Positions 12,491 to 60,346 are shown, counted from the first letter of the stretch. The stretch is 64,000 nt of DNA from a virus (IMGVR_UViG_3300028886_000059:1-64000); one strand, 5' to 3'. The notes: generated by a model from the sequence alone, not told the origin. Numbers and translations: made by a program.

Positions 12491-12497
12491 AGCAGTA

Positions 12498-12968
12498 TTA
12501 TTTGAATTTCCATGTTTTCATGTAGTCGAATGGCATAGGATAGCCGTCTATAATCTTCGGCGATAGGAGATAGCGACCCTTCATATAAGGTATGCGCATG
12601 AATTGCCCCAAGCTGTCACCTTCGTTATGGGCAAAGTATTCCTTTTCCGTTGACTCATACACGCTGAAATGCCTCTGAAATCCATACCCCTGTACGCTTT
12701 CACCCAAGATAGGCCAGTGCATATCTTTGACACACCAGTTTTCCACGATGTCGGCATGACAATAATGAGTACTATAGACAGCTACGAAAAATGTCTGCTG
12801 AAAATACCCTGTTTCGGTAAGGTCGGGGCTTGCCATCACCTTGAAATACTTCATGTGTTTCTTCAAGTCTGCAACCTTCTTTTCGTACTCTTCACATTCG
12901 GTCTTGTCAATGAACTCTTTTCCGTCATCGGCAATATAAACCTTCTTTGTTACAGTTTCTTCTTTCAT
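12498..12968 (-). CDS. hypothetical phage protein
   Basis: VYIADDGKEF...CEEYE N-terminus common in phages. Confidence 0.7.
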   Translation of the reverse strand: MKEETVTKKVYIADDGKEFIDKTECEEYEKKVADLKKHMKYFKVMASPDLTETGYFQQTFFVAVYSTHYCHADIVENWCVKDMHWPILGESVQGYGFQRHFSVYESTEKEYFAHNEGDSLGQFMRIPYMKGRYLLSPKIIDGYPMPFDYMKTWKFK

Positions 12969-12975
12969 AGCTGTA

Positions 12976-13284
12976 TTATTTTACCGTTGCTTTTCCTGCT
13001 GGCTTCAAGTCATCAGCATAACACCACTCATCGCTACGCTCCAGCCCTTCCACATGGCCGCTATGACACACATCATAGTCGAAGTTGCCGATGTACTTTC
13101 CATAGGCAATCTCGCCGCTTGGGTATCTGACAAGTATCATACTGCCGTATTTCGGCTCAGTCATTCCATCGTGCCACAGGTTGTTAAGAACCAAATCCAC
13201 ACCGTCGTTAAATGCTTGCTGGCATTCTGACGATTCATAGGTAGCACCTTTCTTTATAATCTTGATTGCTAATTCTTCTGTCAT
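12976..13284 (-). CDS. hypothetical (DUF551-like) protein
   Basis: WHD..EP...WCYADDL pattern. Confidence 0.6.
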   Translation of the reverse strand: MTEELAIKIIKKGATYESSECQQAFNDGVDLVLNNLWHDGMTEPKYGSMILVRYPSGEIAYGKYIGNFDYDVCHSGHVEGLERSDEWCYADDLKPAGKATVK

Positions 13285-13682
13285 ATCAATTTTATATTTT
13301 TATTCTTCTGCTCAAGTGGATGCGGTATATCCAGCCAGTATTTCACACCTTCTATGTTCCAACCACCTTTCCCATAACCTTCGGGATGATATTCTTTCCC
13401 TTCAATCTTTACGAAAGAGTTAGGGTCAACACGATGTGCAAAGCATATTTGGTAACATGGCTCACCCTGTAATTCACGCGGCCTTATGCCCATTCGCTTG
13501 CTTATGTCTGCCAGCACAACAACATCCCTGTCTATTTCAGGCAGTCTGTCACTTACGCGCACCCATGCTTTTTCTTCATGCCACGCCACACCAGCCATAA
13601 ATGCGTTCACGATGGCCTCCTCTTCCGTCTTTCTTGTTGCCTGAACGAGCAGGATAAACTTCTTCGCTGCACGTTTAATCAT
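13281..13682 (-). CDS. DUF551-like protein
   Basis: WVRVSDRLPE...VKYWLDIP. Confidence 0.7.
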   Translation of the reverse strand: MIKRAAKKFILLVQATRKTEEEAIVNAFMAGVAWHEEKAWVRVSDRLPEIDRDVVVLADISKRMGIRPRELQGEPCYQICFAHRVDPNSFVKIEGKEYHPEGYGKGGWNIEGVKYWLDIPHPLEQKNKNIKLI

Positions 13683-14226
13683 CGACCACTTCATACGGCT
13701 CAAATTTTTGCATCTTGAACTTCTTTACCTTCTCGAACTCTTCCGCACTGACCCTCATTCTGATGTTGGTGCAATCCTCGTTGTAGTCGGGTATGCGCAC
13801 AACGCCATATTCCCGTTTTTCCGTCGGTGGCCATAAGCCCCAAATATCATCGCGGGTAAATGATTCTGCATCGCCTTTCAACGGCTGCACAATGATTTCT
13901 TCTTCATCGAAAATCCTACGCAGCTTGATGTTCAGGAGTTCCGTAAGCCACAAACGCAGTTGATGATGGTCGATGGCGCATTGCTTATCATCACACGACT
14001 TTTCGATTTCAAAGCAGTGCTTGATGGCTTCTTTCATCCTGTCGGTTTCAGAATACACCTTGTCACCGTCAATCTCCAAGTCGTTTTCGTCGCAGTATGC
14101 TTGCAGGGCTTCGTCGCACCAGTCACCCTCACACGTTCCATTCCGTGACGTTTCGCCACGCATGTAAGGGCAGTATTCGCACAGACCATCACCCAGCTTT
14201 TCTTTTAGTTCTTTAGTCGTAGTCAT
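13675..14226 (-). CDS. hypothetical Cys-rich protein
   Basis: 183-aa ORF. Confidence 0.65.
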   Translation of the reverse strand: MTTTKELKEKLGDGLCEYCPYMRGETSRNGTCEGDWCDEALQAYCDENDLEIDGDKVYSETDRMKEAIKHCFEIEKSCDDKQCAIDHHQLRLWLTELLNIKLRRIFDEEEIIVQPLKGDAESFTRDDIWGLWPPTEKREYGVVRIPDYNEDCTNIRMRVSAEEFEKVKKFKMQKFEPYEVVDD

Positions 14227-14229
14227 ACC

Positions 14230-14430
14230 TTACATTTCCTTTTCGTTTGACAGTGCCTCCAGTTCGCCGATTTCGCCGTTTATGTTTCGGGCTATGAATT
14301 GCAGCCTACGCAGCTTTTCACGCTGATACTTAGACATGGGCTGACGGCTTTTCGATGACCGCTTGCGAATTTCACGTATCTCTTCTGCCAGCGATTCAGC
14401 AGTCTTTTTCAGCATTAACAGGGCTTCCAT
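14230..14430 (-). CDS. hypothetical coiled-coil protein
   Basis: Start MEALL directly after the upstream stop. Confidence 0.55.
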   Translation of the reverse strand: MEALLMLKKTAESLAEEIREIRKRSSKSRQPMSKYQREKLRRLQFIARNINGEIGELEALSNEKEM

Positions 14431-14431
14431 A

Positions 14432-14914
14432 CTACTTCCTATAGACATTGCCACTACCTGTTGATACCAATCCAGCGACATCACCACAATGAACGTCACC
14501 GCTGCCAGTGCTGACATTGACAGCATTTTCACACTGCACATCACCGCTTCCAGTCTTGAGGTTCTGTACGTCGCCATGAACAACCACGTCGGCCACTGAC
14601 GCATTAAGCAGCTGAACATTGCCAGTGATTTCAATGCTGACAACATTCTCCTCCTCATACTTGCCGCCTAAATCGTTCCAGTCAACTGCTTTGCCATCAA
14701 CATACCACTGGCCATCGCGTTTCTTGATGATGTTATTGCCACGCAGCACATGACGCTTGCCATTGCGGGTGATAGTCACGCTTCCACCTTTAACGATGGT
14801 TTCGCCGTTGTTGTTAATGACCATACCACCACTGATAGAGGTGATACCTTCTTTCGCCTGTTTAGTTGCATCCTTGATGAAATCTTTCAAGGGCATTCCA
14901 TTAATTTCAATCAT
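14432..14914 (-). CDS. beta-repeat (DUF4097-like) protein
   Basis: Repeated STGSGDVxC motifs. Confidence 0.7.
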   Translation of the reverse strand: MIEINGMPLKDFIKDATKQAKEGITSISGGMVINNNGETIVKGGSVTITRNGKRHVLRGNNIIKKRDGQWYVDGKAVDWNDLGGKYEEENVVSIEITGNVQLLNASVADVVVHGDVQNLKTGSGDVQCENAVNVSTGSGDVHCGDVAGLVSTGSGNVYRK

Positions 14915-14918
14915 AGTC

Positions 14919-15173
14919 CTATTTATTGTGATTTAACTCCTTTATTTTCTCAAAGCAGGCATCGTTCAGATTCGTGGCCTTATCCCAAAGTGCATCATTC
15001 CGAATCATCAGCGAATCAATCAGCGCATTTTGGCGGTCTATGACTTTCTGCTGGGCATCATGCACCGCAAAGCACTGTTTTATCGCGCCCATTTGGATAA
15101 AGAACACTACAAACAGCACCGCAAACACTATGCTGAATGCTGCCATGATTATCTTCTGTCTGTTTTCGCTCAT
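14919..15173 (-). CDS. membrane-anchored coiled-coil protein
   Basis: N-terminal TM helix. Confidence 0.6.
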   Translation of the reverse strand: MSENRQKIIMAAFSIVFAVLFVVFFIQMGAIKQCFAVHDAQQKVIDRQNALIDSLMIRNDALWDKATNLNDACFEKIKELNHNK

Positions 15174-15415
15174 ATCGGTTTATAATTAGTCGGTTTCCAT
15201 TCCACTTTGCCGTTTACCATCTTGGCCTTATACTCCAGCAGGTAGCCGTCATCCATTGCAGGGGTGATGCAGTCGTTTGCGAAAAGTTCCGCATCCGTCC
15301 ACTTGTTGACCTTCATCATGCTTTCAACCGTTTCTTTGGCCTTATCCAGTGAGTCAAAATTAGTCGTTACAGCACGTTTGCGGCCTTTTCTTGATAGTGT
15401 GATGATATACTTCAT
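15170..15415 (-). CDS. hypothetical protein
   Basis: ORF. Confidence 0.6.
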   Translation of the reverse strand: MKYIITLSRKGRKRAVTTNFDSLDKAKETVESMMKVNKWTDAELFANDCITPAMDDGYLLEYKAKMVNGKVEWKPTNYKPI

Positions 15416-15418
15416 ACC

Positions 15419-16102
15419 TTATAGTTTGATGATTAAAATCTTGACTTTATCGCAGACTTTAAGATTCTGTTTTTCCGCTGTCCTAATTCTATCTATTGCA
15501 AGTGCTGGGCGTTTATCCCAATCAATAACGGCAACTTCAAAGGCATCCTTCATCATCTGCTCATACAGCCATTGCGCACCAAATGCAAATTCGCTATAAG
15601 ATACCTTCATGGCATCCGCGCCTCTAAAATCTTTCCATCTTTCAGAGTGCTTGATTGCTTCTTCTAATATCCTATTATTAAGTTCTTTTGGCACAGATTC
15701 CCTTACTTCCATCAAATCTACATCATGGGCATTTTCTTTTTCTGATGTAATGGCAGAACTTAATCGGTCTCTTTCTTCCATGACCTTCATCCTCATAGCA
15801 ATATCATCGCTTATAGGATTTTCTAAAGATTCAATAAAAGAAATCAGGTCATTGCATACAGAAATAGGGGATGCGCACCCGCTATTCTTTAGCACTTCTA
15901 CAACGGTTTTAATTTTCTGCAAGTTATCCATTTTGACATCGCTTGCAGATTCTTTTTGAAGGGTTTCAGCGTATTCTATCATTTCTTCAAGTGCAGCACA
16001 CCTTCCTGCAAGAGTCATGCAGCCAGTAATGCTATCACCCTTTTTCATTTCTTCCCTAAACCCGTCTAATCGCCTTTTCATTTCGGCTATAATTCTATCC
16101 AT
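15419..16102 (-). CDS. hypothetical protein
   Basis: 227-aa AT-rich ORF. Confidence 0.65.
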   Translation of the reverse strand: MDRIIAEMKRRLDGFREEMKKGDSITGCMTLAGRCAALEEMIEYAETLQKESASDVKMDNLQKIKTVVEVLKNSGCASPISVCNDLISFIESLENPISDDIAMRMKVMEERDRLSSAITSEKENAHDVDLMEVRESVPKELNNRILEEAIKHSERWKDFRGADAMKVSYSEFAFGAQWLYEQMMKDAFEVAVIDWDKRPALAIDRIRTAEKQNLKVCDKVKILIIKL

Positions 16103-16599
16103 AATCAGCCCTCCTTTCTATATAAATATGTATCAATAGCTACATTCACACCTTCCTTAACATTCGGCGTGTTTATTCGCGTAATAACCTTTTTTACGTG
16201 TATATTCTGATAGTCGGGATTTGCCGTGCAATAGTCATTCAGCAGCGCATCCAACTGGTTCAAAAATTCATCTTTTGTCATAGCAAGTACCTTATTTTGT
16301 TATTTCCACACTGCCACTATCCCATTCAAGGTCATAGCCTACAGGATTGTCAACTGCCATCTGCCCGTTAAGACCGACGGCAAACTCAACGGCCTCCTGA
16401 ATCTCCTGTTCCGTAGCGTCATCACTAACATCAATGACACCTTCAATGCGTACTTCTACCTTCATAGTCAATCCTCCTCCTTACAATTCTTGATGACCTC
16501 ACGCCACTCTTCGGGCGTTCTACCTGAAATATACAAGCCTATAATGCAGGCGATAAGAAATAACTCAAACATGATTCTATATTCTAAATGGTTCTACAA

Positions 16600-16917
16600 T
16601 CAATTCATCAACACAGTCAAGTCGTATGCGCTCATCGGGTCTGCAACCGTACCACAGAAAGATGCTATAATCTGCATGTCGATGTCTTTGTCACATCCTG
16701 CGATGGTATAGCGGTACACCTTGCAATGACCATTCTTGCCAATCTCACCCTCATAGCCAGCATTTTCAAGATACAGGGTAACACCCTTGTCAGTGCCTAT
16801 AATGCTTTCTACGACGTTCTTAACGCCCTGCCAGCACTCATCGTAATACTTCTTGCTGGTTGCATTCTGAATGGCTTTGTAAGCCCTGCGAATGAAAGTT
16901 CTTTTAGCTGTTGCCAT
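16600..16917 (-). CDS. hypothetical protein (first gene of an early operon)
   Basis: Start MATAKR follows the leader motif. Confidence 0.7.
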   Translation of the reverse strand: MATAKRTFIRRAYKAIQNATSKKYYDECWQGVKNVVESIIGTDKGVTLYLENAGYEGEIGKNGHCKVYRYTIAGCDKDIDMQIIASFCGTVADPMSAYDLTVLMN

Positions 16918-16926
16918 GTTGTCTGT

Positions 16927-16968
16927 TGCCTGTTTGGTCAGTCGGCTCATCTGCTCTAAATGGTTTTG
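16927..16968 (-). ncRNA. conserved leader RNA motif, copy 2
   Basis: caaaaccauuuagag-cag-augagccga-cug-accaaac-aggca. Confidence 0.7.
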
Positions 16969-16979
16969 TTTTACATGTG

Positions 16980-17050
16980 CAAAGGTAAGCAAATAAATTG
17001 AAACCACCAAATATTTTGAAAAGAAAATAAAGCAAATAACTTTATTTAAC
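16980..17050 (-). promoter_or_regulatory. early-class promoter with operator
   Basis: Same -7/-33 spacing and operator as the other copies. Confidence 0.8.
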
Positions 17051-17229
17051 TTTTCAAAGACTGAAAACGGGCAAAAACGAAGCCACACCTTATATATAAT
17101 ATATGGCATGGCTGTTTTGTTATGGTTTTGTTCTTTCATTGTCTCGCCCTTGTTGGTTGCCATTTTCAGACGCTTGCAATACACTGGAACATAAAAAGTT
17201 ATCTTTGTTTCATCCTTGTTGTCTGAATG

Positions 17230-18111
17230 TTACTGGCCTGTTTGTTCGTCATCTGTGAACAGGGCATTAGTCTGTCTTTCAATCAGGGGCAGGATGCCGA
17301 CCTCCTTCAATTTGTTGTAGAGGAACAGACGGCCTTTCTGTCGCCATTCAGTGTGCATGACCGTATCAGGTCTGCCATCTGAACGTGTGATATTGATGGT
17401 CTTACTGATGATATAACCTTCGGAAATGTAGGGCGCATAGAGAATCCACTGGCCGTTTACCTTGCGTTGAATACGCATGGCCTCCAGCTGCTTGTTGAAT
17501 GTAACTGCTGACATTCCGTAGTCCTGCGCTATCTGAGTCGTAGTGACAGAGCCGACGCTTGACAGAATGATTTCAAGGTAATCGGTCTTTTGTTTCATTT
17601 CCACTATCTCCTCAGACATGGCCGCAATCTGAATGTTCTGCTGCTGAATAGTTTCAGTCTGCTGTTTGTTCTCAAGCATCAGACGCTCCTTTTCTTCCTC
17701 GGCCTGCAATACCATCAACGCCAAATCCTTGCGAGACAATTCTTTGTTGATGGCTTGATTTGCTACCTTATGGAATACGGTACGATACACATCAAACACC
17801 GCTCTGACCTTACGGGCAATGAAATATTCAAGGCATGATGTGGAAAGCATATACATATCTTTAGTTGTACCGCCAACGCTTCGCTCCACCTTTTTGCGGA
17901 GTGAGGTATAATCTTCACCTTCAATAAAATTCTTCCGCAATTCACGAACCGCAACATCCCTGCGCGTATAGACCAGCATCCAAACCTCATCGAGATTCAC
18001 AGGAAATTCCTGCCCACTACGAGACATTTCCAGTATCTTGCTGAAATACATCTTCAATTCATCACTACTGCTGTCCTTTGACAAAATCAGACTGTTTGTT
18101 ACATCTTCCAT
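17230..18111 (-). CDS. phage antirepressor (AntA/AntB-like N-terminus, KilAC C-terminus)
   Basis: FPVNLDEVW...FIEGEDY; TTTQIAQDYGMSA...GQWILY...WRQKGRLFLY. Confidence 0.85.
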   Translation of the reverse strand: MEDVTNSLILSKDSSSDELKMYFSKILEMSRSGQEFPVNLDEVWMLVYTRRDVAVRELRKNFIEGEDYTSLRKKVERSVGGTTKDMYMLSTSCLEYFIARKVRAVFDVYRTVFHKVANQAINKELSRKDLALMVLQAEEEKERLMLENKQQTETIQQQNIQIAAMSEEIVEMKQKTDYLEIILSSVGSVTTTQIAQDYGMSAVTFNKQLEAMRIQRKVNGQWILYAPYISEGYIISKTINITRSDGRPDTVMHTEWRQKGRLFLYNKLKEVGILPLIERQTNALFTDDEQTGQ

Positions 18112-18224
18112 ACTATCACCTTCTTTAATGAAAGTGGGGCAGAAACGAGACCGCACTTCCCGAATCCACCCCGAAAATATCCTAATTCCGTGCCGTGCGG
18201 CAGCACATCATTTCTTTTCAGATG

Positions 18225-18296
18225 CAAATATACCGCTTTATTTATAATGCACGAAATAAATTCTTTTGCTTGTTTTCACCAAACAAATTAAGTGAA
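18225..18296 (-). promoter_or_regulatory. late-class promoter
   Basis: caaatata at 18225, ttcacc-N10-agtgaa at 18275. Confidence 0.75.
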
Positions 18297-18309
18297 AGAC
18301 TTGCCAGTT

Positions 18310-18636
18310 TTACTCCGTCATAACGAATCCGAATATACTTGGATTGTCTGTCGGGTTGAAAACGTATGGGAATCCGATTTCCTCTCCAAGTGGGAATCCT
18401 CCAGCCTGTTCATCGCCATCAATAGGACGACGAAACAGGTAATCAAATCCCATGCGTTCCGCAATACTGTTACCGCCGATACTAAGCGCATGGGTAAGAA
18501 GCAAGGGGAGGTTTCGTTTCCCCTTGCTGTCTTCCACCTCCATAATATCGGTGTCGGCGACCTTGACGCGGACGATTTTTCGCCGCCCGTCACCATCTGC
18601 CTCCTGATGGGTTACATGGAGAGTTATCTTCTTCAT
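18310..18636 (-). CDS. hypothetical protein
   Basis: 108-aa ORF at the end of the tail operon. Confidence 0.6.
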   Translation of the reverse strand: MKKITLHVTHQEADGDGRRKIVRVKVADTDIMEVEDSKGKRNLPLLLTHALSIGGNSIAERMGFDYLFRRPIDGDEQAGGFPLGEEIGFPYVFNPTDNPSIFGFVMTE

Positions 18637-18641
18637 ACGGC

Positions 18642-18902
18642 CTATTTGATGGAATCAAGCATCGGCATGAGAGTACGCTTCACGATAGCCTTGAAGCCCT
18701 GCTCGATGTACTCCTTGACCTTCTGAGCGGTTTCCTTCGTCAGTTCCACCTCCTTCTTGTGGTAGATTTCATGTCCAAGGTCTGCAACTGCGATGTCCTG
18801 CTCTCCGTAGTACATCATGTTTCCTAACTCCTTTGAAATGTCAACGGACTGAATGTTACCTTCAATGTCCTTAATCTCAATCTTTGAAAAATCAATCTTC
18901 AT
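18642..18902 (-). CDS. tail-fibre-associated small protein
   Basis: MKIDFSKIEIKDIEG..ELGN..Y pattern typical after Bacteroidales tail genes. Confidence 0.65.
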   Translation of the reverse strand: MKIDFSKIEIKDIEGNIQSVDISKELGNMMYYGEQDIAVADLGHEIYHKKEVELTKETAQKVKEYIEQGFKAIVKRTLMPMLDSIK

Positions 18903-18909
18903 AATAAAA

Positions 18910-19245
18910 CTATTTTTTATAAGTTAAACAATAAATCCATGCAAAGTGCTTGCGGTTCTGCAAGTAGTTCATATCATATTGATTTGCGTATGCCTCGCGT
19001 TCAAATGACATGTTACGGTAGACATCATTGAAGTTCCTGTACTGGATAAGCCTGAACAGGTATTCTATGCCGTACCATAGATAGAAGAAAACCAATAGCA
19101 TTTCAATTTGCTGTCGGCTATGTATCAACTCATGATTCAAGTCCACATCCTTGAATGAAGAGCCCCGCCTTACGAATATCCAAGGCCAAAAGCACATTGA
19201 CTTGTGGCTCTTGAATGGAATGATGTCGTTAATTACTACTTTCAT
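18910..19245 (-). CDS. HExxH-containing phage protein
   Basis: LNHELIHSRQQIEML...FEREAY. Confidence 0.7.
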   Translation of the reverse strand: MKVVINDIIPFKSHKSMCFWPWIFVRRGSSFKDVDLNHELIHSRQQIEMLLVFFYLWYGIEYLFRLIQYRNFNDVYRNMSFEREAYANQYDMNYLQNRKHFAWIYCLTYKK

Positions 19246-19250
19246 AATCA

Positions 19251-22200
19251 TTATTGTGTATAACCGTAATACCATGTTCCGTTATAGAAGGTGTAGATAT
19301 GCCAAAACTCCACAGCAGTAAAACTGGATGGATTGTCACCGACCATCGTATGACTTGCGCTGACACTGACAGTTCCACCGTTTTTATTTCTCAGCCATAT
19401 CTCCCTTCCATCTTCAGGGCTTGATGGGAGTGTTACGCTTTGGTCTCCGCTTCGCGTGAACACTATCTTCTCGTCAGAATCGCCAACGCTATACGATGTG
19501 CTGCTTGTTTCCTTCACGTTGACAACACGCCTGCCGCTATTCTTGATGCCTACCGTCTTTGTCATCTTCTTATTGTCGATACCTTCAACGATAAGCGCGA
19601 ACACGGTATCATCATTGATTTTGTTTGCAGTTCTGAGCAGTTGCGTTACGCCTTGGATTTCAACTTCACAGTTTCCATAGATTCCCCTAAAAGAACTTGT
19701 TGCAGTAATCTGCTCGATTCGCAGGATTGCGCCTCTTTGCGTATAGCCATACAAATAATCTGCTCGACCACTTGTGAATGCGGTTCCGCTATCCATATAC
19801 AAGCCAAAGGCATTGTTCTTTGCATAGGTAAACGAACCGTCATCAGCAGGCACTGATAGAGTTCCGTTAAAACTTCCTGACGTAGCCCTGATAGCACCGC
19901 TGATGTCAACATTCGACGCGACCAAAGAGCCGTCTTTCAACACACCGAACTTGGAGCCTATCGTAAAGCGCAGGGTTGTACGACTTGACCCGTTGATGGT
20001 AGCCGTCATGTCTGTAGTGGCAAGGAACATACTTGAATCGGAGCCTATAGTACCGCTATGTATCTTCTGTGACTCTATAGTCCATCCGCTTGTGCCTCCG
20101 ATATATCCTGCCGTTGCCGTGACAGTTCCGTAAATCGTAACCGCACCGCCTGATGAAATCTTCAAAGTGTCATTTGTACCGTCACTGACAACAAAATTGC
20201 CTGATTTAAAGTCTATCTGCTCGGCATACATACTGATTTTTGCGCCAGTGAAATCAATCGTACCTTTTGAACTTCCGCTTCCACTACCTGATAACGTCAG
20301 TGTCTTACCTGAATTTATGGTAATGGATGAACTTGCAGATATAGTTAGTGATGCACCACTTATTGATAATGATGAACCCGAATTAAGGGTCATGGAAGAG
20401 CCCGATTTTACGATAACACTGGCACTACCTTCAATTTCTATCGTTCCACCGCTCAATGAAAGTTCGCCAGCCGATGATACCGTAAATGTATTGCTTGCGC
20501 TTATGCTAACGGTCTTTCCATCCAATATTAGCGCATCTGCATTGATTTTGGCCGTATCTGCTGTTAGAACAAGTCTCGTTTTGCTGTCATTACCAACACT
20601 AAAATTAAGACCACCTTTCCAATCATATTGCTGAGTAGTGCTATTATAAGTATAATAACCAAACCCGAAGTTGTTTGAAGCATATCCCTTTGATATAACA
20701 AGCCCTAATCTGCTTGATAATGGCTGGCCGTCATTGGTTTCGACATCTTCGATGAATGCGCTGATAAGGTCGTTACGAAGCACCACGCCGCTGTTTCCAA
20801 CTGCTGACTTAAAGCTGTTGGTTGCAGAGAATGATATGTTGTCACCGCTCATGCTGACGGTAGCACCAGTAAAATCAATGCTTCCGCTGCTGAAACTCAA
20901 AGTCTTATTGGATGCTACCTGTATATCGCCTCCGTTGATGGTGACTTTGCTTTGAGAAGTTCCAAGCGCAATCGTCTTACCAGCGAAAGTGATTTGGTCT
21001 GCACCAAGAGACACCGTAGCGGCAGTTAAATCAATCGTCTGACCTGTATATGTCAACTGACCTGCATTCAAGGTAAGATTTGCAGCCGTGAGGTCTATCG
21101 ACCTTCCGCTATAGGTTAATTGGTCTGCATTAAGAGATATGGTTGCAGCCGTCAAGTCGATGGTTCGCCCTGAATATGTAAGCTGGTCGGCATTGATGGA
21201 AAGGTTTGCCGAAGTCAGGTTCAGCGTCGAAGTCGCAGACAGGTTTATCGTACCGCCTGTTATTCCGATGGTCTTTCCAGTCAGCGTAAGAGTACCTGAT
21301 TCTATCTGCATATTGTCGGCATCCATCTGTACGGTTGTTCCCTTGAGGTTTACCGTGCCGCCGCTGATAGACAGCGTACTGCTTGCATTGAGGCTGATGG
21401 TCTTACCGTTGAAGTCGATGTTGTTCTGAGCATCCACCTTGAAATCGCTCTTGACCACGGTAGTATCGGCAGCAAGCACAAGTTTGGTGTTTCCGTTGTC
21501 GGTCTCGAACTTCAATCCCTGCTTGAACACGCCGCCTACATAAGTGCCGAAGGAGAACTCGCCAGCCGCCTCGTTCGTCTCTTTCCTGATGACCATTCCG
21601 ATTTGCTGCTGGAATACCTGTGTACTCGTATCGCCGCTTGCCAGTGTTGCCGACGTGCTGATATTGAACGAATACCGCTTTTCGCCACCTATCTTATGCC
21701 AGCTTGACCAACTGTTACTATCATTTGACAGCCTTGTGCGCATATAAGTGTCACCCGACTGCCTGATGTTGTGGATGTCGGATTCAGACGGGTTGCTTAT
21801 GGCAGAATACTGGGCAATCAGTTCTACCGCATTGCTTCCAGTCACCATTAAATAACGTGTATTATTAATGGTATAGGACTGGCCGCTTGAGTTCCATGTC
21901 TTCTGTTGTACCATTTTCCAAAGGTACGGCTTCGATGACGTGGGGGCAACAGGTATGTCAGACCATGATGAAATATCACTCGGTGCTGTATTTGCGTTGG
22001 CAGATGAATTATACTGGCTGATTCCGTAGCAAATAGTGGTCTCGTCGCCCCTTTCTCCAGTCACCAAGAACCAGTCGCCCCAATCGCTATCGTCATCGCC
22101 CTTTATGCGCATATATATGTCGCCCGACTGCCAGCTGTCATGTATCGCTGCACCGCTCGGCGTTGTAGCAATAGAAGCCGTGAACTGCGCACGGACACCC

Positions 22201-43465: not shown

Positions 43466-43536
43466 CAAAGGTAAGCAAATAAATTTAAACTACCAAATTT
43501 TTCAGCGAAAAAATAAAGTTATTTGCTTTATTTAAC
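43466..43536 (-). promoter_or_regulatory. early-class promoter with operator
   Basis: Near-identical to 10621-10690. Confidence 0.8.
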
Positions 43537-51517: not shown

Positions 51518-51588
51518 CAAAGTTAAGCATTTAATTTTATATTACCAAATTTTTTGCAAGAAAAATAAAGCAAATAACTTTATTTAAC
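51518..51588 (-). promoter_or_regulatory. early-class promoter with operator
   Basis: -7 TAACTTTG, -33 TTTGG, operator. Confidence 0.8.
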
Positions 51589-53548: not shown

Positions 53549-54904
53549 TTATTTGATTGCAATCTTACTATTCTTCTTTGTCACCTTTAGATTCTTCACT
53601 ATCTTACCCAGCAGCTTGCCGAGCGTGTAGTAGCGGGCAGCGTCGATGGCGTGATTCCACTTGTCAACGGGAACGTTGATATAGTTTCCATCCTTATCCT
53701 TATCCCAAACGTAGTTGCGCAATTCCTCTTGCAGGTCGATGGAATCTTCCGTAACGAAGATGTCATCATAACTCTGCATCTTGTCAATGCCAGCCACTAT
53801 TGAGCCATTCGGCTTCTGAACTGGATATATCATTATTCCACCAAGGGCGATTTCGTCGATGAGTCGCGGGTCTGCGCTATCGGCGAACACCATCAATCCA
53901 CTATACGGCTTCAAGAACTCGATGATGTCCTTTGACAGCATTCCAGTCCTGTAGCACAGCAGTTTTATATAAAGCCTGTTATCCCATATTCCGCACATCA
54001 CAATGGCCGTTGGGTCATGTGTGTAACCGAAGTCTATTCCGAGCGCAACATGCTTGCACTGCGTCGGGAACTCCTTCACGATACCCCATTTCTTGAACAC
54101 AGCACCTTCCGCAACATCAGCCCATTGGCCGATGACGATGTGCGCATACCTTTCAGGGTCATTGCGCTTCATGGTTTCCACGTTCTCAAGGAACTGCGGG
54201 GATAGGTTCTCTATGTTGTCAAGGTATGTCGTATGGATATGAAGCACGTCGGGATGCGTCGAAATCTGCACTGGCACACCGTCGAAGTATTCAATCCTGT
54301 GCGTGTCCTTTATGTATTTCTGATAGATGAAGTGTCCGCTGTCCGTCGGGTTCATCACGATGATGATGAGGTTCTGAATGCCCAAGGTACGGATGGAAAG
54401 CATGATTTTCTCGAAGTCATCAAACGAAGTCCACTCTTCCGCTTCATCACAGACAAACACCGTCAGGCCGTGGATTGATTTCAGCTTTGCCGTCTGATTG
54501 CCCGATGAGGTCTTGATGCCTCGGAACATGATATGTGAGCCAGTCTGCTTGTTGATGACATCCTTCTTTGTGGCACGGAAATACTTCTGCGTACCCTCCA
54601 TCTCTATCTTCTCCAAAAATTCGGGGATGACAGAAATATCGGCTGATACCATCGTATAGCGGGCGCAAAGAATCTGATGTGCAAGCAATTTCGCATCATC
54701 GCGGGGGCTCGGCACGGCTTCAAAGGTCAGGCGTTCCAAGAAGGTTTCGACATTGAAAGACTTACCGCTTCCACGGCCTCCAGTGACAAGCACAATCATC
54801 TTTCTGCCGTTGTTCAGATAGAGAGGATGGTAAACAGGCTGCACCTTGATACCCTTGCGCACCTGCCCTCGTAAAACCTTCCGTCTATCTGCTACCCTTG
54901 TCAT
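53549..54904 (-). CDS. terminase large subunit (PBSX-like)
   Basis: Walker A GGRGSGKS, CDEAEE, GIDFGYTHDPTA, NHAIDAARY. Confidence 0.95.
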   Translation of the reverse strand: MTRVADRRKVLRGQVRKGIKVQPVYHPLYLNNGRKMIVLVTGGRGSGKSFNVETFLERLTFEAVPSPRDDAKLLAHQILCARYTMVSADISVIPEFLEKIEMEGTQKYFRATKKDVINKQTGSHIMFRGIKTSSGNQTAKLKSIHGLTVFVCDEAEEWTSFDDFEKIMLSIRTLGIQNLIIIVMNPTDSGHFIYQKYIKDTHRIEYFDGVPVQISTHPDVLHIHTTYLDNIENLSPQFLENVETMKRNDPERYAHIVIGQWADVAEGAVFKKWGIVKEFPTQCKHVALGIDFGYTHDPTAIVMCGIWDNRLYIKLLCYRTGMLSKDIIEFLKPYSGLMVFADSADPRLIDEIALGGIMIYPVQKPNGSIVAGIDKMQSYDDIFVTEDSIDLQEELRNYVWDKDKDGNYINVPVDKWNHAIDAARYYTLGKLLGKIVKNLKVTKKNSKIAIK

Positions 54905-55632
54905 TCTTCGCTTTCAGTCGTTATGTCATTTTCTACATTCTTCCAGTCATCCGTCATTTCCGCATCTATCCAGTGAGATACAGGTATGCCCTGCTTGACG
55001 TTCTGCGGCAATTCTTCATCATCCTCGATTCCGCGCTGGATTTTCCTCCAGTTCGGGTCATGGTGAAACAGAAACGTCGATAGTGCCTGAATGTTCGGTG
55101 CAAGTTCCGATTCCGTCTCTTGAACTACGGCCTTATCCGTCAGTACAACGATGCCAGTACCACCACAATCGGGGCATTTAGGGTCGTTTCCGTTACAGAT
55201 ACAACGCGCCTGCACATACCTTGTTGTAACCGACTTAATCTTCCTTCCACCGATGGCCGCACGGTAGTATGCAGCCCTTGCAACACCGATGGCCTTTTCC
55301 CGCGCACGGGCTAAGACGTGTGCGATGTGAGCGGAGCGCACGGCGTTTTCTGATGCTGTCCACCTGTTGTAGTTTCCGTTTTTCATGTGGCTGAACACCT
55401 CGCGTGAAATGTCGAGTTGTGCCGCAATCTCGGTGTCGGTCATCCCCTGTCCTGCAAGCTGGTCAATCTTCTTGAAAAAGATACCTTCGGGGTCATCGTA
55501 GTCGTATTTGGCTTTGGAGTCGGGAACCTTGACGAGCGGCGCAGATGTCTTGCGTCGCTTTGTAGCGGCCTTTTTCACCGTTTTCTTTTTCGGCTTGGCT
55601 GCTGCTTCGGTCTTTTTCTTCCTTTCTGCCAT
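54901..55632 (-). CDS. terminase small subunit (HTH, with CxC..CxxC insertion)
   Basis: GMTDTEIAAQLDIS; ELAPNIQALSTFL; directly upstream of TerL. Confidence 0.75.
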   Translation of the reverse strand: MAERKKKTEAAAKPKKKTVKKAATKRRKTSAPLVKVPDSKAKYDYDDPEGIFFKKIDQLAGQGMTDTEIAAQLDISREVFSHMKNGNYNRWTASENAVRSAHIAHVLARAREKAIGVARAAYYRAAIGGRKIKSVTTRYVQARCICNGNDPKCPDCGGTGIVVLTDKAVVQETESELAPNIQALSTFLFHHDPNWRKIQRGIEDDEELPQNVKQGIPVSHWIDAEMTDDWKNVENDITTESEE

Positions 55633-55638
55633 GATGCT

Positions 55639-56481
55639 TTACTCCAGTATGTCAATTTTATCCATGAGTTCGCGCCCGTCCACGAATTTGCTATTGGGGT
55701 CGAATCCCAGCTGAATGAGTGCGCCCTGTGTCTCTTGGGGGTTGGGGAACGATACGATGAAATACGACAACATGCCGCCGTCGTTGTTGGTGTCGGACTT
55801 CTTGTTTATGCGGTCTTTGATTTTCTGCACTTCGTTGTGACGCGCAATCTGATTCTCGGCACTGTCGGCCATGAAATCTACGCTGCGGTCAAGTTTCGTG
55901 TTCTCCTCGCTTCCGTGGGTGTTCGCATCAACCTGTGCAAGATGCTCGCTATCCTGTGTCAGATTACCCTTTCGCCAGTCGTTAGCGGGGTCTGTCTCTT
56001 CGGGTATGTCGGTGATGTTCCGAAATTCCTCATCGTCAATGGGTGTTATACCCAGCATGTCGAGGTCGAAGTCGTTGAAGCCTGCGGCCTTGTGGTCTAT
56101 CTTTGCCAGCACGTCACGTAACAGGTCATCGTCGAAGTCGCCCTGTACGGCCTTGTTGTTCAAGAACATGTTCTGTTCCATCTCCTCCTTTTCTGACAGA
56201 TGAACCACCTCCACGCGGATTTCATAGTCGTTTTCATGCGTTTCAGAATTGTATTTGTTCACCTCGTCGATGATTGACACCTTCTGATGACCGCCAACAA
56301 GATTTCCGCTTTCCTCATTCCACACGATACCGCCCATAAGCCCCAGCCGCTTCAAGTTGGCCTTTAGCTGCTTTCGGGCTTCTTCCGAAATCTTGCGGGG
56401 ATTGTATGATGCAAAGTTTATCTGACTTCTCAGGATTACCCTGCATTCAGCTTGTGCGATTTTACTTTTCTTCACTGCCAT
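55639..56481 (-). CDS. ParB-like N-terminal domain protein
   Basis: ASYNPRKIS...GIVWN..GNLVGGHQK...FLNN. Confidence 0.85.
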   Translation of the reverse strand: MAVKKSKIAQAECRVILRSQINFASYNPRKISEEARKQLKANLKRLGLMGGIVWNEESGNLVGGHQKVSIIDEVNKYNSETHENDYEIRVEVVHLSEKEEMEQNMFLNNKAVQGDFDDDLLRDVLAKIDHKAAGFNDFDLDMLGITPIDDEEFRNITDIPEETDPANDWRKGNLTQDSEHLAQVDANTHGSEENTKLDRSVDFMADSAENQIARHNEVQKIKDRINKKSDTNNDGGMLSYFIVSFPNPQETQGALIQLGFDPNSKFVDGRELMDKIDILE

Positions 56482-56484
56482 AAC

Positions 56485-57261
56485 TTACTCCTCCTCCAGT
56501 TCTATGTCATCCGACTGCAAGTTTTCGGGCATTTCCGTCTTGGTGGTTATGCCGTGCTCGTAGTCGAAAATCAGTTTTTCGCAATATGGGAACTCCTGCA
56601 AGCACCTTTGATAGTCACGCGGGTAGTTCTTTCTAAGAAACAGCAGATGGTCGAGGTCTATAGCCAAACCCTGCGACACATTGCCCTTCACGTATTCCAG
56701 CGGCCTAATCAGAGACTTCGCCTTGATGTACTGCAACACCTCGCCGTTAGTCCACACGGCCAGCGGGTAAACCATGCCCTTCTTGGTCATGTATGTACCG
56801 TTCTGCTTCTTGAACATCAGCAGACGCATACGCTTCATGTAGCCATCCACGCCCTTCATGCCGCTAAAGGCATAGGGTACGCCAGTTTCCTGCCTTACCT
56901 GTTCCTCGATTTCGCCGATGGAGCGCATACGCAGGTGGTTCGGGTCTTTCTTCGGCAGCAGATAGCGGGGGTCGGGGTCGCAGAAGAATCCTCCTGCCTT
57001 GAATGCGTCATGCTGAAAATGCAGGATTTTCCGTACTTCGACATTCTTGTAATGCTTCTCAGCCCAATCAATGTAAGGCTGCACATGGTCGCAGTTGTTC
57101 ACAAGGTACATGTAATAGCAGATGACCTTCGGGAATGTCGTTGCCAGCATCTCCAGCAGGGCGATGCCGTCTTTGCCACCAGCCGAATAGAATAGTACGG
57201 CAGTGTCGGTCTTTTCGCGGATGCCCTTGATGATGGCCATTGTCTCTGAATACTTGCTCAT
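56485..57261 (-). CDS. PAPS-reductase-like PP-loop (HUP) protein
   Basis: LFYSAGGKDG PP-loop; GMKGVD..R; YPLAVWT..EVLQYI. Confidence 0.85.
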   Translation of the reverse strand: MSKYSETMAIIKGIREKTDTAVLFYSAGGKDGIALLEMLATTFPKVICYYMYLVNNCDHVQPYIDWAEKHYKNVEVRKILHFQHDAFKAGGFFCDPDPRYLLPKKDPNHLRMRSIGEIEEQVRQETGVPYAFSGMKGVDGYMKRMRLLMFKKQNGTYMTKKGMVYPLAVWTNGEVLQYIKAKSLIRPLEYVKGNVSQGLAIDLDHLLFLRKNYPRDYQRCLQEFPYCEKLIFDYEHGITTKTEMPENLQSDDIELEEE

Positions 57262-57282
57262 AGTTCCGTTTATGTAATTTTT

Positions 57283-57951
57283 TTAGTTTGAGCCGCCCAA
57301 AGCTGTACGCAAGGCAGCTGCTATCGTATTTCCGCTACCTCGGCGCAATACCCTTTCGCGGTCACTCATCATCCTATCCCAATCATCGTATGTCTTAACC
57401 CTGTCAAGGTTGATTTCCCTGCTTGGGCTATAGCTTCGCATCATTGCCGACAATCCTTTTGGAAGGGTCATGGCAACGACGGGGAGGCGTGTGCGGCCAT
57501 CCCAATCAGACGGTGCTAAATCGTCATCCCATTCTACTTTTCCGATGGCTTTAGCACCATATTTCGCATACATATTCTGTAATCCACCACCATAGCAATC
57601 CAGCTTTCGGCCACCCCTTGCAGAAGCGAATGCCATGATGTTGGGCATCCTTCCGCGTGTCCTGCTGAATACGGCCTCCACATTGCCGTCGCTTGTTATG
57701 GCGAGTCCTGTCTTGTGGTCTTTAGAAAGGTAATAAGCCGTGCCACTGTTACGGTTATTCCTGAACTGTTTCTTTGTATGGGTGTCAACCATCCAGCCGT
57801 GCCTGTTTTTCTTCTTGGCATAGTTGATGGCATTCTTGAAAGCCTTTGGCGTTGCACGTTCAAATTCTACATGAGAATGACGAATACCCTTTCTTGTCAG
57901 GGCATTCTCGACGCGCTTGTTTGCTTTTTCAATATCGCTTATGTACCTGAC
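57283..57951 (-). CDS. divergent GNAT-like protein with probable GUC start
   Basis: Frame open 53 codons upstream of the first ATG (57792), beginning at GTC directly after TGA; GGRKLDCY..L..MY..YG..WDDDLAPSDW motif. Confidence 0.7.
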   Translation of the reverse strand, partial: VRYISDIEKANKRVENALTRKGIRHSHVEFERATPKAFKNAINYAKKKNRHGWMVDTHTKKQFRNNRNSGTAYYLSKDHKTGLAITSDGNVEAVFSRTRGRMPNIMAFASARGGRKLDCYGGGLQNMYAKYGAKAIGKVEWDDDLAPSDWDGRTRLPVVAMTLPKGLSAMMRSYSPSREINLDRVKTYDDWDRMMSDRERVLRRGSGNTIAAALRTALGGSN

Positions 57952-57964
57952 TCAGCCGTTCCGT

Positions 57965-58162
57965 TTACATTGTCAAAATATCAGCCATCAATTCAGGGCT
58001 GCTATAATCCATGTCACTATCCAGCGAATCATCGCTGGGGCTGTCTGCCAGTTTTCTTGCCTCATCCTCTGTCAGGTAAGGCTTTCCATTCTCCTTGATT
58101 TTGCAGAGCTCCTCAAAAAGACGCTGGCGATATTCAGCAATCTGTTCTTTCGTATGCTTCAT
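57965..58162 (-). CDS. small acidic hypothetical protein
   Basis: Follows an early promoter. Confidence 0.65.
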   Translation of the reverse strand: MKHTKEQIAEYRQRLFEELCKIKENGKPYLTEDEARKLADSPSDDSLDSDMDYSSPELMADILTM

Positions 58163-58181
58163 TGTTGTTCAATTAATAGTG

Positions 58182-58253
58182 CAAAGATAAAGCAAATAAA
58201 TTGATTTACCAAATATTTTTCGTTATTTTTTGTTGCATATTACTTTATTTAAC
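58182..58253 (-). promoter_or_regulatory. early-class promoter (degenerate operator)
   Basis: -7/-33 boxes at the conserved spacing. Confidence 0.7.
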
Positions 58254-58270
58254 TCTTCCGCTAAATCAGA

Positions 58271-58308
58271 ATGGCCACCACCATCATTTTGCTGACGGCG
58301 ATGGCCAT
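58271..58308 (-). terminator. 16-bp hairpin after the Arg-rich gene
   Basis: auggccaucgccguca/ugauggugguggccau. Confidence 0.6.
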
Positions 58309-58329
58309 GAGGTCGGCTCAAGGCAACCT

Positions 58330-58584
58330 TTAGCCCTCAGAGCCTGCGGCAGCACGAAGGGCGGCGGAGCGCAAGGCTGCACCACGAACACCACGCGCCC
58401 GCATAGCGGCTACGTTCTGACGTGCTTGTCGGGCGAATGCCACACGAAGGTCTTGACGACGCTGTTCACGGTTTCCCCAACCTGCACGGCCAGCCGCATA
58501 ACGGCCACCATTTGCCAGTCGGCGACTACCTGCACCGTTCACGTTTGACGTGATACCAGTGATTCGATTGATTCTGTTTCTGAC
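58330..58584 (-). CDS. small Arg/Gly/Ala-rich basic protein with probable GUC start
   Basis: VRNRINRITGITSNVNGAGSRR...AAAGSEG; no in-frame ATG near the start; GCTGA-GTC-AG context. Confidence 0.7.
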   Translation of the reverse strand, partial: VRNRINRITGITSNVNGAGSRRLANGGRYAAGRAGWGNREQRRQDLRVAFARQARQNVAAMRARGVRGAALRSAALRAAAGSEG

Positions 58585-58617
58585 TCAGCATTCAAATTAA
58601 AGGGTTCGACATTATTG

Positions 58618-59028
58618 TTAGTTGTCTGAATGGGCATCCTGTTCCTCGTCGAAGATTTCACAGTTCTCTTTCTGCATGACTTCGCCGAGTTCATACTGCA
58701 TTTGCGTAACATAGTAGGTCTCGCCGTTATCCACGAAGGTAAGCGGCTCGCCAGTCTTTTCGTCATCCATCTGAACGACCTTAATCCCAACGACCTGCAC
58801 CAGCAGACGGGGGGCATTCTTCTGACGGCCATTGATAAGCTGCAAGGCATCGTAGCCCACAACCTCGACATCGCTTGTGCCGTCGCCGTTGTCCTTTTCC
58901 ACCAAATACTGCTTGGCGTTACGCGGGTAAACAAAGCGGTGCTCGACCTTTTGCTCACCCTTCAAGATTTTCTTGAAACTGTCGCGCTTGATTTGTAGCG
59001 TCAGTACATCTAATCCTTCTAAATTCAT
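58618..59028 (-). CDS. ASCH/PUA-like domain protein
   Basis: LTLQIK..F..IL.GEQKVEHR...LQLINGR..APRLLV. Confidence 0.8.
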   Translation of the reverse strand: MNLEGLDVLTLQIKRDSFKKILKGEQKVEHRFVYPRNAKQYLVEKDNGDGTSDVEVVGYDALQLINGRQKNAPRLLVQVVGIKVVQMDDEKTGEPLTFVDNGETYYVTQMQYELGEVMQKENCEIFDEEQDAHSDN

Positions 59029-59061
59029 TTCAATTCCGATTTAATTGTTACTATAATTTTG

Positions 59062-59134
59062 TTGCGGGAGCAGGGCTCGAACCTGCGACCTCCAGTAAGT
59101 CAAACTGTTAAGCTACCAACTGCTCCATCCCGCG
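59062..59134 (-). tRNA. tRNA with initiator-type body and GAC anticodon
   Basis: CGCGGGA UG GAGC AGUUGGUA GCUU A ACAGU UUGACUU ACUGG AGGUC GCAGG UUCGAGC CCUGC UCCCGCA A; C1:A72 mismatch, A11:U24; CCA not encoded. Confidence 0.85.
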
Positions 59135-59142
59135 ATTTTCGG

Positions 59143-59214
59143 CAAAGTTACACATATTACTATTGTCATGTGAATCTATACCTACATTATGTTTCACCAA
59201 TTTATATTAGTGAA
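59143..59214 (-). promoter_or_regulatory. late-class promoter driving the tRNA-ASCH operon
   Basis: caaagtta at 59143, ttcacc at 59193. Confidence 0.8.
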
Positions 59215-59298
59215 AGAATCGCGGTGTTTTGCAGCTATTTCACTTCCATCTATTCAATCATTTTGCTTTATATTTCACCCAGCGGGCGCATTTATATT

Positions 59299-59340
59299 CG
59301 CCTTTCTTTATCCTGTCGGCATCAGGTCTAAACGGTTTTG
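59299..59340 (-). ncRNA. conserved leader RNA motif, copy 6
   Basis: caaaaccguuuaga-ccug-augccga-cagg-auaaaga-aaggcg. Confidence 0.65.
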
Positions 59341-59346
59341 TCTTTG

Positions 59347-59415
59347 CAAAGGTACAAAATAATATTGAAACTACCAAACTTTTTTGCAGAAAAATAAAGC
59401 AAATAAATTTATTTT
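59347..59415 (-). promoter_or_regulatory. early-class promoter with operator
   Basis: -7 TACCTTTG, -33 TTTGG, aaataaagcaaataaattt. Confidence 0.75.
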
Positions 59416-60346
59416 ACCATTCCGCAAAGATGTTATGACTGGCATTCACGACTTGCACGGAGTACTGAACACGGCCATCCACCTTGTTTCTGATGCTGTC
59501 TTTCCAGTATATCCTCGACTTCGGGGCTTTCGCTGCCACAATCTCCTGCACGTCATTGACGAACTTCACTATGCCGTCAAGCGTGATTGGCTTCTTGTTG
59601 TGCTTCTTGCCGCTTTCCAGCCCTATCTTATAGACATCGCAGAATCCCAATGTGGCCTTTATCATCTCCAGCGAATCATCCAAGTCTATCACAGGCTCGA
59701 TGCTGGCAAAGGTATGAACGCCGTATTCTTTGACCTTCGCCATCGCTTCCACACGCTGCATGTTCGTTGACGCATTCGGCTCAAGGTCATCCCTGCCTGT
59801 CAGCGTGAAACCGACGCACAGGTTCTTACCGCCATTGACCAGCAGACGATGCCCACCGATTCCGTACACCCACTCCGAGCGTTTCGTCAGCATGGTAACT
59901 GGCACTGGAGGCAAATCGTTTCTTCTGCTTCCATCCTCGTTACACCCCAATGCGATATAGGCACACCGCATGAATGTATAGAAGGTATCGACTGGCTGCT
60001 GTAGGCACGGGTCGCTGCTGAACGTAAAGAAGATGCCACGGCCATCTGCCATGATTCTTCCCCTGTACTTATCCAGTTCCTTCTCAAATACCTGCACGGC
60101 CTTGTTACATCCTACGATGAATGCGAGTTTTCTTGAAGCGTCGCAGTCATTCTTGAACTTGACATCCTTTGCCGTCAGCTGAAACTCCTTTTTCAGTTGC
60201 GGGATTTTCTGACCCATTCCGTGACCTAACACGCCTTTCTTGCAGTAGCAATACTCACAGTCGTTTGAACACCCGACAAAGATATTTGCCGCCCAAGGAG
60301 CGTATTCGCGGGCTTTTCCCGCTGGCTGATACACAATTTTTCCCAT
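59414..60346 (-). CDS. radical SAM protein (SPL-like)
   Basis: GCSNDCEYCYC motif; FTFSSDP, MLTK, LEPNAS, ASIEPV. Confidence 0.85.
   Translation of the reverse strand: MGKIVYQPAGKAREYAPWAANIFVGCSNDCEYCYCKKGVLGHGMGQKIPQLKKEFQLTAKDVKFKNDCDASRKLAFIVGCNKAVQVFEKELDKYRGRIMADGRGIFFTFSSDPCLQQPVDTFYTFMRCAYIALGCNEDGSRRNDLPPVPVTMLTKRSEWVYGIGGHRLLVNGGKNLCVGFTLTGRDDLEPNASTNMQRVEAMAKVKEYGVHTFASIEPVIDLDDSLEMIKATLGFCDVYKIGLESGKKHNKKPITLDGIVKFVNDVQEIVAAKAPKSRIYWKDSIRNKVDGRVQYSVQVVNASHNIFAEW

Follow-up and report, generated by a model that had tools for sequence, protein, structure and literature searches.

What is a transfer RNA (tRNA) with a valine anticodon doing upstream of two genes that seem to open on a valine codon? 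The question is raised by the phage record IMGVR_UViG_3300028886_000059. The window analysed here, 64,000 nucleotides (64 kb) long, is the first part of this 116,414-bp single-contig record, and all genes of the module of interest, next to the terminase genes, lie on its minus strand. There, a tRNA with anticodon GAC precedes two open reading frames (ORFs), ORF84 and ORF222, for which a GUC start is proposed. We hold with good confidence, on computational evidence, that the core of this region would be a natural private start-codon system, in which an initiator-type tRNA reads the GUC or GUU starts of its client genes; the link between tRNA and GUC starts lies in its initiator type and in an anticodon that fits these codons. 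The fuller picture, which we consider fairly likely, is that of a natural orthogonal initiation system in gut Bacteroidales phages: a valine-retargeted initiator tRNA, a private GUC/GUU start set in GCYGA-GUY (Y being a pyrimidine, the hyphen preceding the start codon), and, as its small regulon, basic proteins with tagged termini, whose first residue would probably be formyl-valine and which may be head-packaged.

ARAGORN and Rfam both call the tRNA, with its GAC anticodon, at 59061-59134(-); it is the only tRNA returned by the Rfam scan of 57000-60000, in which no ribozyme or other known RNA came up at the start motif. An alignment of 28 distinct relatives, from phages with related terminase, fits the cloverleaf with 94.6% of cells paired and compensatory changes at 12 pairs. 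The acceptor stem, D arm and T arm are of the initiator type. Positions 1 and 72 stay unpaired in 28 of 28 despite base changes (CxA, CxC, UxC, AxA; C1xA72 in the window tRNA), and A11:U24, G2:C71, C3:G70, G4:C69 and A73 are invariant, so that the family has the formylation determinants G2:C71, C3:G70 and A73 together with the initiator mark A11:U24. When the family model was scored on two lysogen genomes, Bacteroides sp. KFT8 and Parabacteroides goldsteinii, the best host tRNA was the initiator tRNA-fMet, at 72-75 bits, with elongator Met at 60 and elongator Val(GAC) at 56 bits. The host elongator tRNA-Val(GAC) has G1:C72 and A37, whereas the phage tRNA has an unpaired 1:72 and U37; among the features of an elongator tRNA-Val, the valine anticodon alone fits, the 1:72 pair and the purine at position 37 being absent. 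Nor is the anticodon the CAU of methionine, being GAC, or AAC in 8 loci. Divergence from initiators is confined to the anticodon arm, with mostly A:U at 29:41, C:G or G:C at 30:40 and a closing U.G at 31:39. The exact anticodon arm of the window tRNA has no pattern match in IMG/VR, because the nearest relative has C32. From its sequence, this tRNA can be understood as a derivative of the Bacteroidales initiator tRNA whose anticodon arm was altered to read valine codons, with GAC in this phage and AAC in certain relatives.

Related loci, numbered with an L below, also show variants of the tRNA and further tRNAs. At L017:3057-3131, in a locus that still carries GUC-led ORFs, the covariance model picks up a copy of this tRNA, missed by ARAGORN, whose D and T loops are degenerate and lack GG and TTCGA. 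In the L015/L086/L095 sub-lineage, the special tRNA has A1xA72 and is directly followed by an ordinary tRNA (L015:7433-7507, called Asn-GTT; L086:3433-3507; L095:2790-2864). Elements resembling tRNAs are seen just upstream of terminase at L021/L025:9211-9281 (ARAGORN 'tRNA-???', with a 2-nt anticodon) and L085:5240-5308 (covariance model, 43 bits). The window phage itself has two more tRNAs outside the window, Gln(TTG) and Glu(TTC), at genome positions 91102-91173 and 91393-91465.

ORF84 and ORF222 both open on GTC directly behind TGA, in an identical 10-mer, GCTGAGTCAG, whose 9-mer core, CTGAGTCAG, is limited to these two sites in the whole 116-kb genome; the relative L002/L003 (94-97% identical) retains both motifs and the tRNA. 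In comparison with this relative, the 53 codons of ORF222 that precede its first ATG, among which there is no ATG, GTG or TTG, display 7 synonymous changes versus 1 conservative nonsynonymous change, and homologues align from the first residues of the protein. Coding selection before the first ATG and this alignment together argue that ORF222 begins upstream of any canonical start. The residues of ORF84 ahead of a GTG at codon 15 are conserved at the protein level across the large family of small basic proteins (family A) to which it belongs. Over 23 disjoint pairs of small ORFs, the stretch from GUY to the first canonical start accumulates 27/29/102 differences at codon positions 1/2/3, with 85 synonymous versus 43 nonsynonymous codon changes, and at eight loci a family-A ORF of 51 residues is without any ATG, GTG or TTG.

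The start context is narrow. At 64 distinct sites there is G(-5) in 61, C(-4) in 55, T, C or A at -3, and G(-2) and A(-1) in all 64, A at -1 being required when GUY starts were classified; no family member in tRNA-bearing loci failed this classification. The leader that comes before is A/T-rich and almost C-free. U37 and U38 of the tRNA could form pairs with the invariant A(-1) and G(-2). A longer pairing, in which all of the anticodon loop and stem would join the messenger, is partly supported at most: +4 varies (A, G or C) and -3/-4 do not covary with tRNA positions 39/40. Two other accounts of the motif were rejected, namely a frameshift or read-through from the preceding gene, ORF65, into ORF222, in whose frame TGA stops stand at 57952-57954 and 57973-57975, and a target-site duplication or repeat-flanked insertion, the 10-mer being repeated 633 bp apart, as the same motif stands at gene starts in more than 60 other loci. 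One small-protein gene, at L013:5977-6171, starts on GCTGA-GTC, stops after 10 codons and resumes in a different frame; either the copy is frameshifted or the assembly is wrong at this point.

Anticodon and start codon can be followed together across more than 100 related phages and prophages, in which homologues of the basic proteins start on GA-GUY when the tRNA is there and on ATG when it is not. The hosts are Bacteroidales, with prophages in Bacteroides, Parabacteroides, Prevotellaceae, Muribaculaceae and Paludibacteraceae (19 prophage loci with the tRNA), and the sole cultured close relative is Bacteroides phage BS-TP2 (PQ571275). Counting distinct sequences, and limiting the class without tRNA to loci with complete upstream DNA, the GAC tRNA goes with 45 GTC, 13 GTT and a single ATG (a frameshifted copy), the AAC tRNA with 0 GTC, 6 GTT and 2-3 ATG, and the absence of tRNA with 9 ATG and 0 GTY. 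That GTT occurs beside GAC is in keeping with the ability of G34 to wobble with U. The family-A orthologue has GA-GTC in every GAC locus and GA-GTT in the AAC loci L006, L007 and L018; likewise, the ORF222 homologue of the AAC phage L021 starts at GA-GTT, in the same register. Proteins started on ATG begin M-A-R-K where those started on GUY have V-R-R-K. In an independent sample, where loci were picked by the tRNA pattern alone (at least 103 IMG/VR contigs), a GA-GUY-led basic ORF lies 400-450 nt downstream of the tRNA in 66 of the 67 contigs that reach far enough. Kin share labels. In contrasts counted on a tree of the terminase large subunit (TerL), for tRNA presence against small-protein presence, 6-7 are concordant and none discordant (p about 0.03).

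In the AAC-bearing prophage L088, from a Muribaculum metagenome-assembled genome, the gene of a ParB-like protein (about 4083) opens on TGA-GTT some 28 codons before its YNPRK box, the first canonical start being codon 14. In some phages, then, further genes may use the private start.

The proteins concerned share both ends. Downstream of the tRNA, related phages have one to three small basic proteins of 44-118 residues (R+K 21%, D+E 4%), which begin V-R-R-K (or V-A-R-R, V-G-R-R) on GA-GTC or GA-GTT and end (Y)M-G-L-S-N-G or G-L-G-L/M-S-G-G. The N-terminal V-R common to ORF84 and ORF222 comes from GTC-AGR. The five C-terminal positions of 77 distinct small proteins read G in 63, L in 44, S in 49, N or G in 60 and G in 68, a count biased by the choice of the first seeds according to the tail motif; independent support is given by ORF222 homologues, which were found via their GNAT-fold core and also end ..A-L-G-L-S/T-x-G, those that start on ATG (M-A-K-Q-R-K) sharing the tail. 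The small proteins look disordered, with zero matches in Pfam, PHROGs, NCBIfam and the ESM Atlas. ORF222 is without Pfam match; its model has a predicted local distance difference test (pLDDT) of 84, and its top Foldseek matches are all GNAT acetyltransferases (E about 1e-3, template-modelling score 0.4-0.57), the acetyl-CoA motif Q/R-x-x-G-x-G/A not being evident by eye. The same core domain makes up residues about 344-477 of gp4, a 525-residue MuF-type minor capsid protein that adjoins the portal gene in Microbacterium phage Caron. By analogy, this fusion fits a head-packaged role of ORF222-type proteins, which it does not prove; the clients are probably nucleic-acid-binding or head-packaged.

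Starting from the anatomy, conservation, covariation and co-occurrence that are observed, we may propose, by analogy, how charging, formylation, use of the P site and the role of the clients would follow one another. The tRNA would be cut out of the promoter-proximal transcript and charged with valine by the host valyl-tRNA synthetase (ValRS), via A35 and C36 of the anticodon plus A73. It would be formylated and kept from EF-Tu through the retained 1x72 mismatch and G2:C71/C3:G70, and would then enter the P site of the 30S subunit on a GUC or GUU placed in GCYGA-GUY, behind the A/U-rich, C-free leader. In the window phage the clients would be ORF84 and ORF222, beginning with (formyl)valine; clients in general would have a basic N-terminus and the tail G-L-S-N/G-G, with the ASCH-type protein described below as constant neighbour. 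Established work in Escherichia coli indicates that tRNA-fMet with a valine anticodon becomes a ValRS substrate and initiates at the cognate codon with Val or formyl-valine (fVal). In E. coli, an engineered initiator tRNA with anticodon AAC uses GUU as its exclusive start codon, inserting Val or fVal (bioRxiv 10.1101/2021.05.25.445580; 10.64898/2025.12.21.695813), and in the same literature formylation and deformylation of valine are inefficient with the engineered initiator tRNA.

Several facts weigh against this proposal. The anticodon stem has no run of three G:C pairs (29-31:39-41), where host initiators have GGG:CCC; bacterial initiators normally need three such consecutive pairs for P-site selection and for selection by initiation factor 3 (IF3), and passage through the P site without the triplet would be unusual. 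Position 37 is a pyrimidine, the loop being UUGACUU with a very unusual U37. The conserved G(-5) and C(-4) of the start context are not explained by pairing with the tRNA, since the window tRNA has A39/C40 while the messenger keeps GCU. In ORF84 and many other genes of family A, some 14 codons separate the GUY from a canonical ATG or GTG, which makes a shorter product with a normal start possible. Finally, independent contrasts are few on the TerL tree: those between ATG and GUY number 2-3, all concordant and not significant, and AAC is found in two lineages.

The surroundings of the tRNA and its putative clients have now to be considered. In the order of transcription, the features of the locus are as follows.

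59414-60346 (-): radical-SAM-like gene, 310 residues, adjoining the tRNA promoter on its upstream side
59347-59378 (-): Bacteroidetes-type promoter (TTTG, 20 nt, TAccTTTG), upstream of tRNA, ASCH gene and ORF84
59061-59134 (-): initiator-type tRNA, valine anticodon GAC (ARAGORN, Rfam, cloverleaf covariation)
58618-59028 (-): ASCH-type protein, 136 residues (PF04266 matches among orthologues)
58580-58589 (-): start motif 1, GCTGA-GTC-AG, with GTC at 58582-58584
58330-58584 (-): ORF84, Arg-rich small basic protein of family A, 84 codons, proposed GUC start; alternative GTG at codon 15
58182-58213 (-): second Bacteroidetes-type promoter, upstream of ORF65 and ORF222
57965-58162 (-): ORF65, small acidic protein, 65 residues, ATG start; 7 synonymous and 0 nonsynonymous changes versus L003
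57947-57956 (-): start motif 2, GCTGA-GTC-AG, with GTC at 57949-57951
57283-57951 (-): ORF222, GNAT-fold protein, 222 codons, proposed GUC start; first ATG/GTG/TTG at codon 54; C-terminal tail ..ALRTALGGSN
56485-57261 (-): PAPS-reductase-like PP-loop protein (PAPS, 3'-phosphoadenosine-5'-phosphosulphate), motif SAGGKDG, PF01507
55639-56481 (-): ParB-N (ParB/Srx fold) protein, from fold matches of an AlphaFold2 (AF2) model
54901-55632 (-): terminase small subunit (TerS), phrog_309, E 1e-16
53549-54904 (-): TerL, PF04466, E 1e-25

The portal gene comes next. Most of this inventory had been named in a first-pass annotation of the DNA, made from the sequence alone, and much of it stands: the tRNA(GAC), the Arg-rich 84-residue protein with its GUC start (GTC after TGA), terminase directly downstream (with both subunits), and the shared termini of the two GUC-start proteins, which prove real and general, the V-R being read from GTC-AGR and the tail being a family-wide motif (consensus G-L-S-N/G-G) conserved also in ATG-started GNAT-fold homologues. 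The PAPS-reductase-like assignment agrees with a match to PF01507 (29.8 bits versus a cut-off of 22.5, E 7e-7). That of ASCH is supported via orthologues, of which 11 of 18 match PF04266 (best E 6.9e-6), the one of BS-TP2 being annotated ASCH; the window protein itself stays below threshold, with no PF04266 match at E 0.1. GNAT-like for the 222-residue protein and ParB-N hold at the level of the fold. For the latter there is no Pfam or NCBIfam match, and a sequence profile reaches Spo0J only at E 0.04; its N-domain (AF2 on 19 orthologues) matches Noc, ParB, KorB and Srx (sulfiredoxin) with probability 1.0, an identity named by fold search and not by sequence profiles. Other statements had to be amended: there are two Bacteroidetes-type promoters (59347-59378 and 58182-58213) instead of one; the list of genes omitted the acidic ORF65; the description of the two GUC-start proteins as otherwise unrelated was incomplete, the 84-residue one belonging to family A; and what ties the tRNA to the GUC starts was left unsaid.

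Some neighbouring features deserve a word. The promoter pattern has 10 matches in the window versus 1.5 expected, and further copies of the same class (TTTGGTAG..TAnCTTTG), at 10621-10652, 16980-17011, 43466-43497 and 51518-51549 (-), look like a phage-wide promoter family. The radical-SAM-like protein has CxxxCxxC near its N-terminus and weak matches to Radical_SAM, to spore-photoproduct-lyase-like proteins and to 'radical SAM mobile pair protein B'; its gene is confined to the window phage and its near twin L003, and absent from other relatives. Among related loci ORF65 is likewise found only in the window phage and its near twin. Strongly acidic and with its own promoter, it directly precedes ORF222, and the two have the look of a two-gene insertion, perhaps an effector with its partner or immunity protein. 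Elsewhere in the window, G+C falls to 41-44% at 8001-20000, versus about 50% outside, with strong negative GC skew; this stretch may be a mosaic block.

The enzymes that accompany the tRNA are not all part of one system. A check of gene neighbourhoods gave a divided answer: 50 of 50 tRNA-bearing loci carry ASCH, family-A protein, PP-loop, ParB and TerS, yet PP-loop and ParB are separable from the rest. At least 14 tRNA-less relatives retain these two without ASCH, small proteins or tRNA, and the distant Riemerella phage RAP44 has PP-loop, ParB, TerS, TerL, portal and MuF in this order and nothing else of the module. A PAPS-reductase-like and ParB-like pair ahead of terminase is indeed conserved across Bacteroidota siphophages. 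Because it persists without both, the pair needs neither tRNA nor tagged proteins. The ASCH gene always adjoins the family-A basic protein, tRNA present or not; loci L022/L054 and L033 have ASCH and ATG-started small proteins without tRNA, its absence being confirmed by a covariance-model search, and ASCH is therefore tied to the small proteins rather than to the tRNA. On the TerL tree, the cassette of tRNA, ASCH and small proteins came or went as a whole on at least 8 occasions, while PP-loop and ParB stay in most such lineages. The module thus consists of two independent cassettes, one made of tRNA, ASCH and basic proteins, which is the novel part of the region, the other of PP-loop and ParB, an older and ordinary accessory of the terminase module. 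Separating this packaging-side pair from what is new is in itself of use.

It is in this light that the proposal of the first-pass annotation must be read, that ASCH, PP-loop and ParB enzymes either modify or mature the special tRNA or recognise a C-terminal tag to attach both proteins to the DNA or package them with it. In every tRNA-bearing locus these genes form a contiguous block ahead of terminase, the tail is conserved, and the GNAT-fold domain fused to MuF in Caron suits a cargo. Yet maturation of the tRNA is not supported, given the tRNA-less loci just described, RAP44 included for PP-loop and ParB, and L022/L054 and L033 for ASCH; as for the tag, its conservation is upheld, but PP-loop and ParB live without any tagged protein and ASCH alone co-occurs with it. 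With a cassette that came or went so often, leaving PP-loop and ParB mostly unaffected, we find such an enzymatic link unlikely.

Two further explanations would do without private initiation. GCYGA-GUY might be a DNA or RNA signal (pac, a ParB or TerS binding site, RNA processing), with ORFs starting at internal ATG or GTG and the tRNA supplementing valine decoding. The near-palindromic core close to packaging genes, the in-frame ATG about 14 codons downstream in many family-A genes, and a G(-5) and C(-4) conserved without partner in the tRNA all speak for it; it seems nonetheless quite improbable, as coding selection operates in frame upstream of the canonical starts, some ORFs lack such starts altogether, and the codon becomes GUU exactly with the AAC anticodon and ATG without tRNA. 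Moreover, EF-Tu discriminates against tRNAs with a 1x72 mismatch: the obligatory mismatch would make a poor elongator, in hosts that already own an elongator tRNA-Val(GAC). Alternatively, the tRNA would not decode at all, being a primer, or else a decoy or a replacement where initiator tRNA is attacked by host nucleases or toxins, the GUY starts being read otherwise. The anticodon arm, the usual target of nucleases, is indeed the only part that diverged strongly from the host initiator, and the L017 copy has degenerate D and T loops. To this idea we give very little credence: it leaves unexplained the covariation of anticodon with start codon as well as the 66/67 linkage to GUY-led ORFs, and covariation strong in all four stems indicates a working cloverleaf. 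Initiation on GUC and GUU by the valine-retargeted tRNA remains the reading that we prefer.

How does such a system compare with those already known? Beside the packaging genes, the likeness is to DndC/DndB, IbrA/IbrB and BrxP-type proteins, where a PF01507 PP-loop protein also stands beside a ParB/Srx-fold protein in a mobile element, and a sulphur-inserting role is described for the PAPS-reductase domain (PMC12914056). Here, in contrast, no DndD/SspC-type ATPase or cysteine desulfurase was seen nearby in the window, a search for DndD/SspC/BrxC-type ATPase partners confined to the stretch between tRNA and portal gene finding none, and the pair does not depend on the tRNA cassette. Caron gp4 has the same GNAT-fold domain as ORF222 at the C-terminal cargo position of a MuF-type protein, whereas in ORF222 the domain stands alone, with a basic N-terminus, a G-L-S-x-G tail and no MuF fusion. 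In gut phages (crAss-like, Lak), phage-encoded suppressor tRNAs give the stop codons of late genes a new reading; there too, a phage tRNA alters the reading of codons for a subset of genes, but in elongation and at stop codons, where the window tRNA would act in initiation, at a sense codon. Bacterial tRNA-fMet, including the tRNA-Met of Erwinia phage phiEa21-4 (82% identical), shares with the window family the acceptor stem, the D and T arms, the mismatch at 1x72 and A11:U24; the window family differs by GAC or AAC in place of CAU, the absence of the G29-G31:C39-C41 run, and U37.

To our knowledge, natural bacterial initiation as described so far always uses Met-tRNA-fMet on AUG-class codons, and we know of dedicated non-methionine initiator tRNAs at a sense codon only as laboratory constructs; full-text literature searches found these engineered counterparts and no natural precedent. 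If the reading proposed here is true, a virus can privatise the identity of a start codon. It would also account for a whole family of phage genes being absent from annotations or cut short in them (the family has no entry in Pfam or PHROGs, and gp53 of BS-TP2 is annotated from an internal ATG although its frame opens GCTGA-GTC); BS-TP2, on Bacteroides salyersiae, makes a cultured test case. For synthetic biology, it would provide an evolved orthogonal initiator, working without the three-G:C stem and with U37/U38. The nearest counterparts are the engineered E. coli initiator tRNA(AAC) with GUU (preprints of Hutvagner et al., 2021, and Scopelliti et al., 2025) and tRNA-fMet(GAC) with a GUC start (Chattapadhyay, Pelka and Schulman, 1990): they too combine an initiator body, a valine anticodon and a cognate start, with Val or fVal expected, and their two anticodons are those that the phages carry in nature. 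In contrast to these constructs, the phage system would be natural and widespread, with a remodelled anticodon stem devoid of the three-G:C run, U37/U38, defined clients and a fixed start context.

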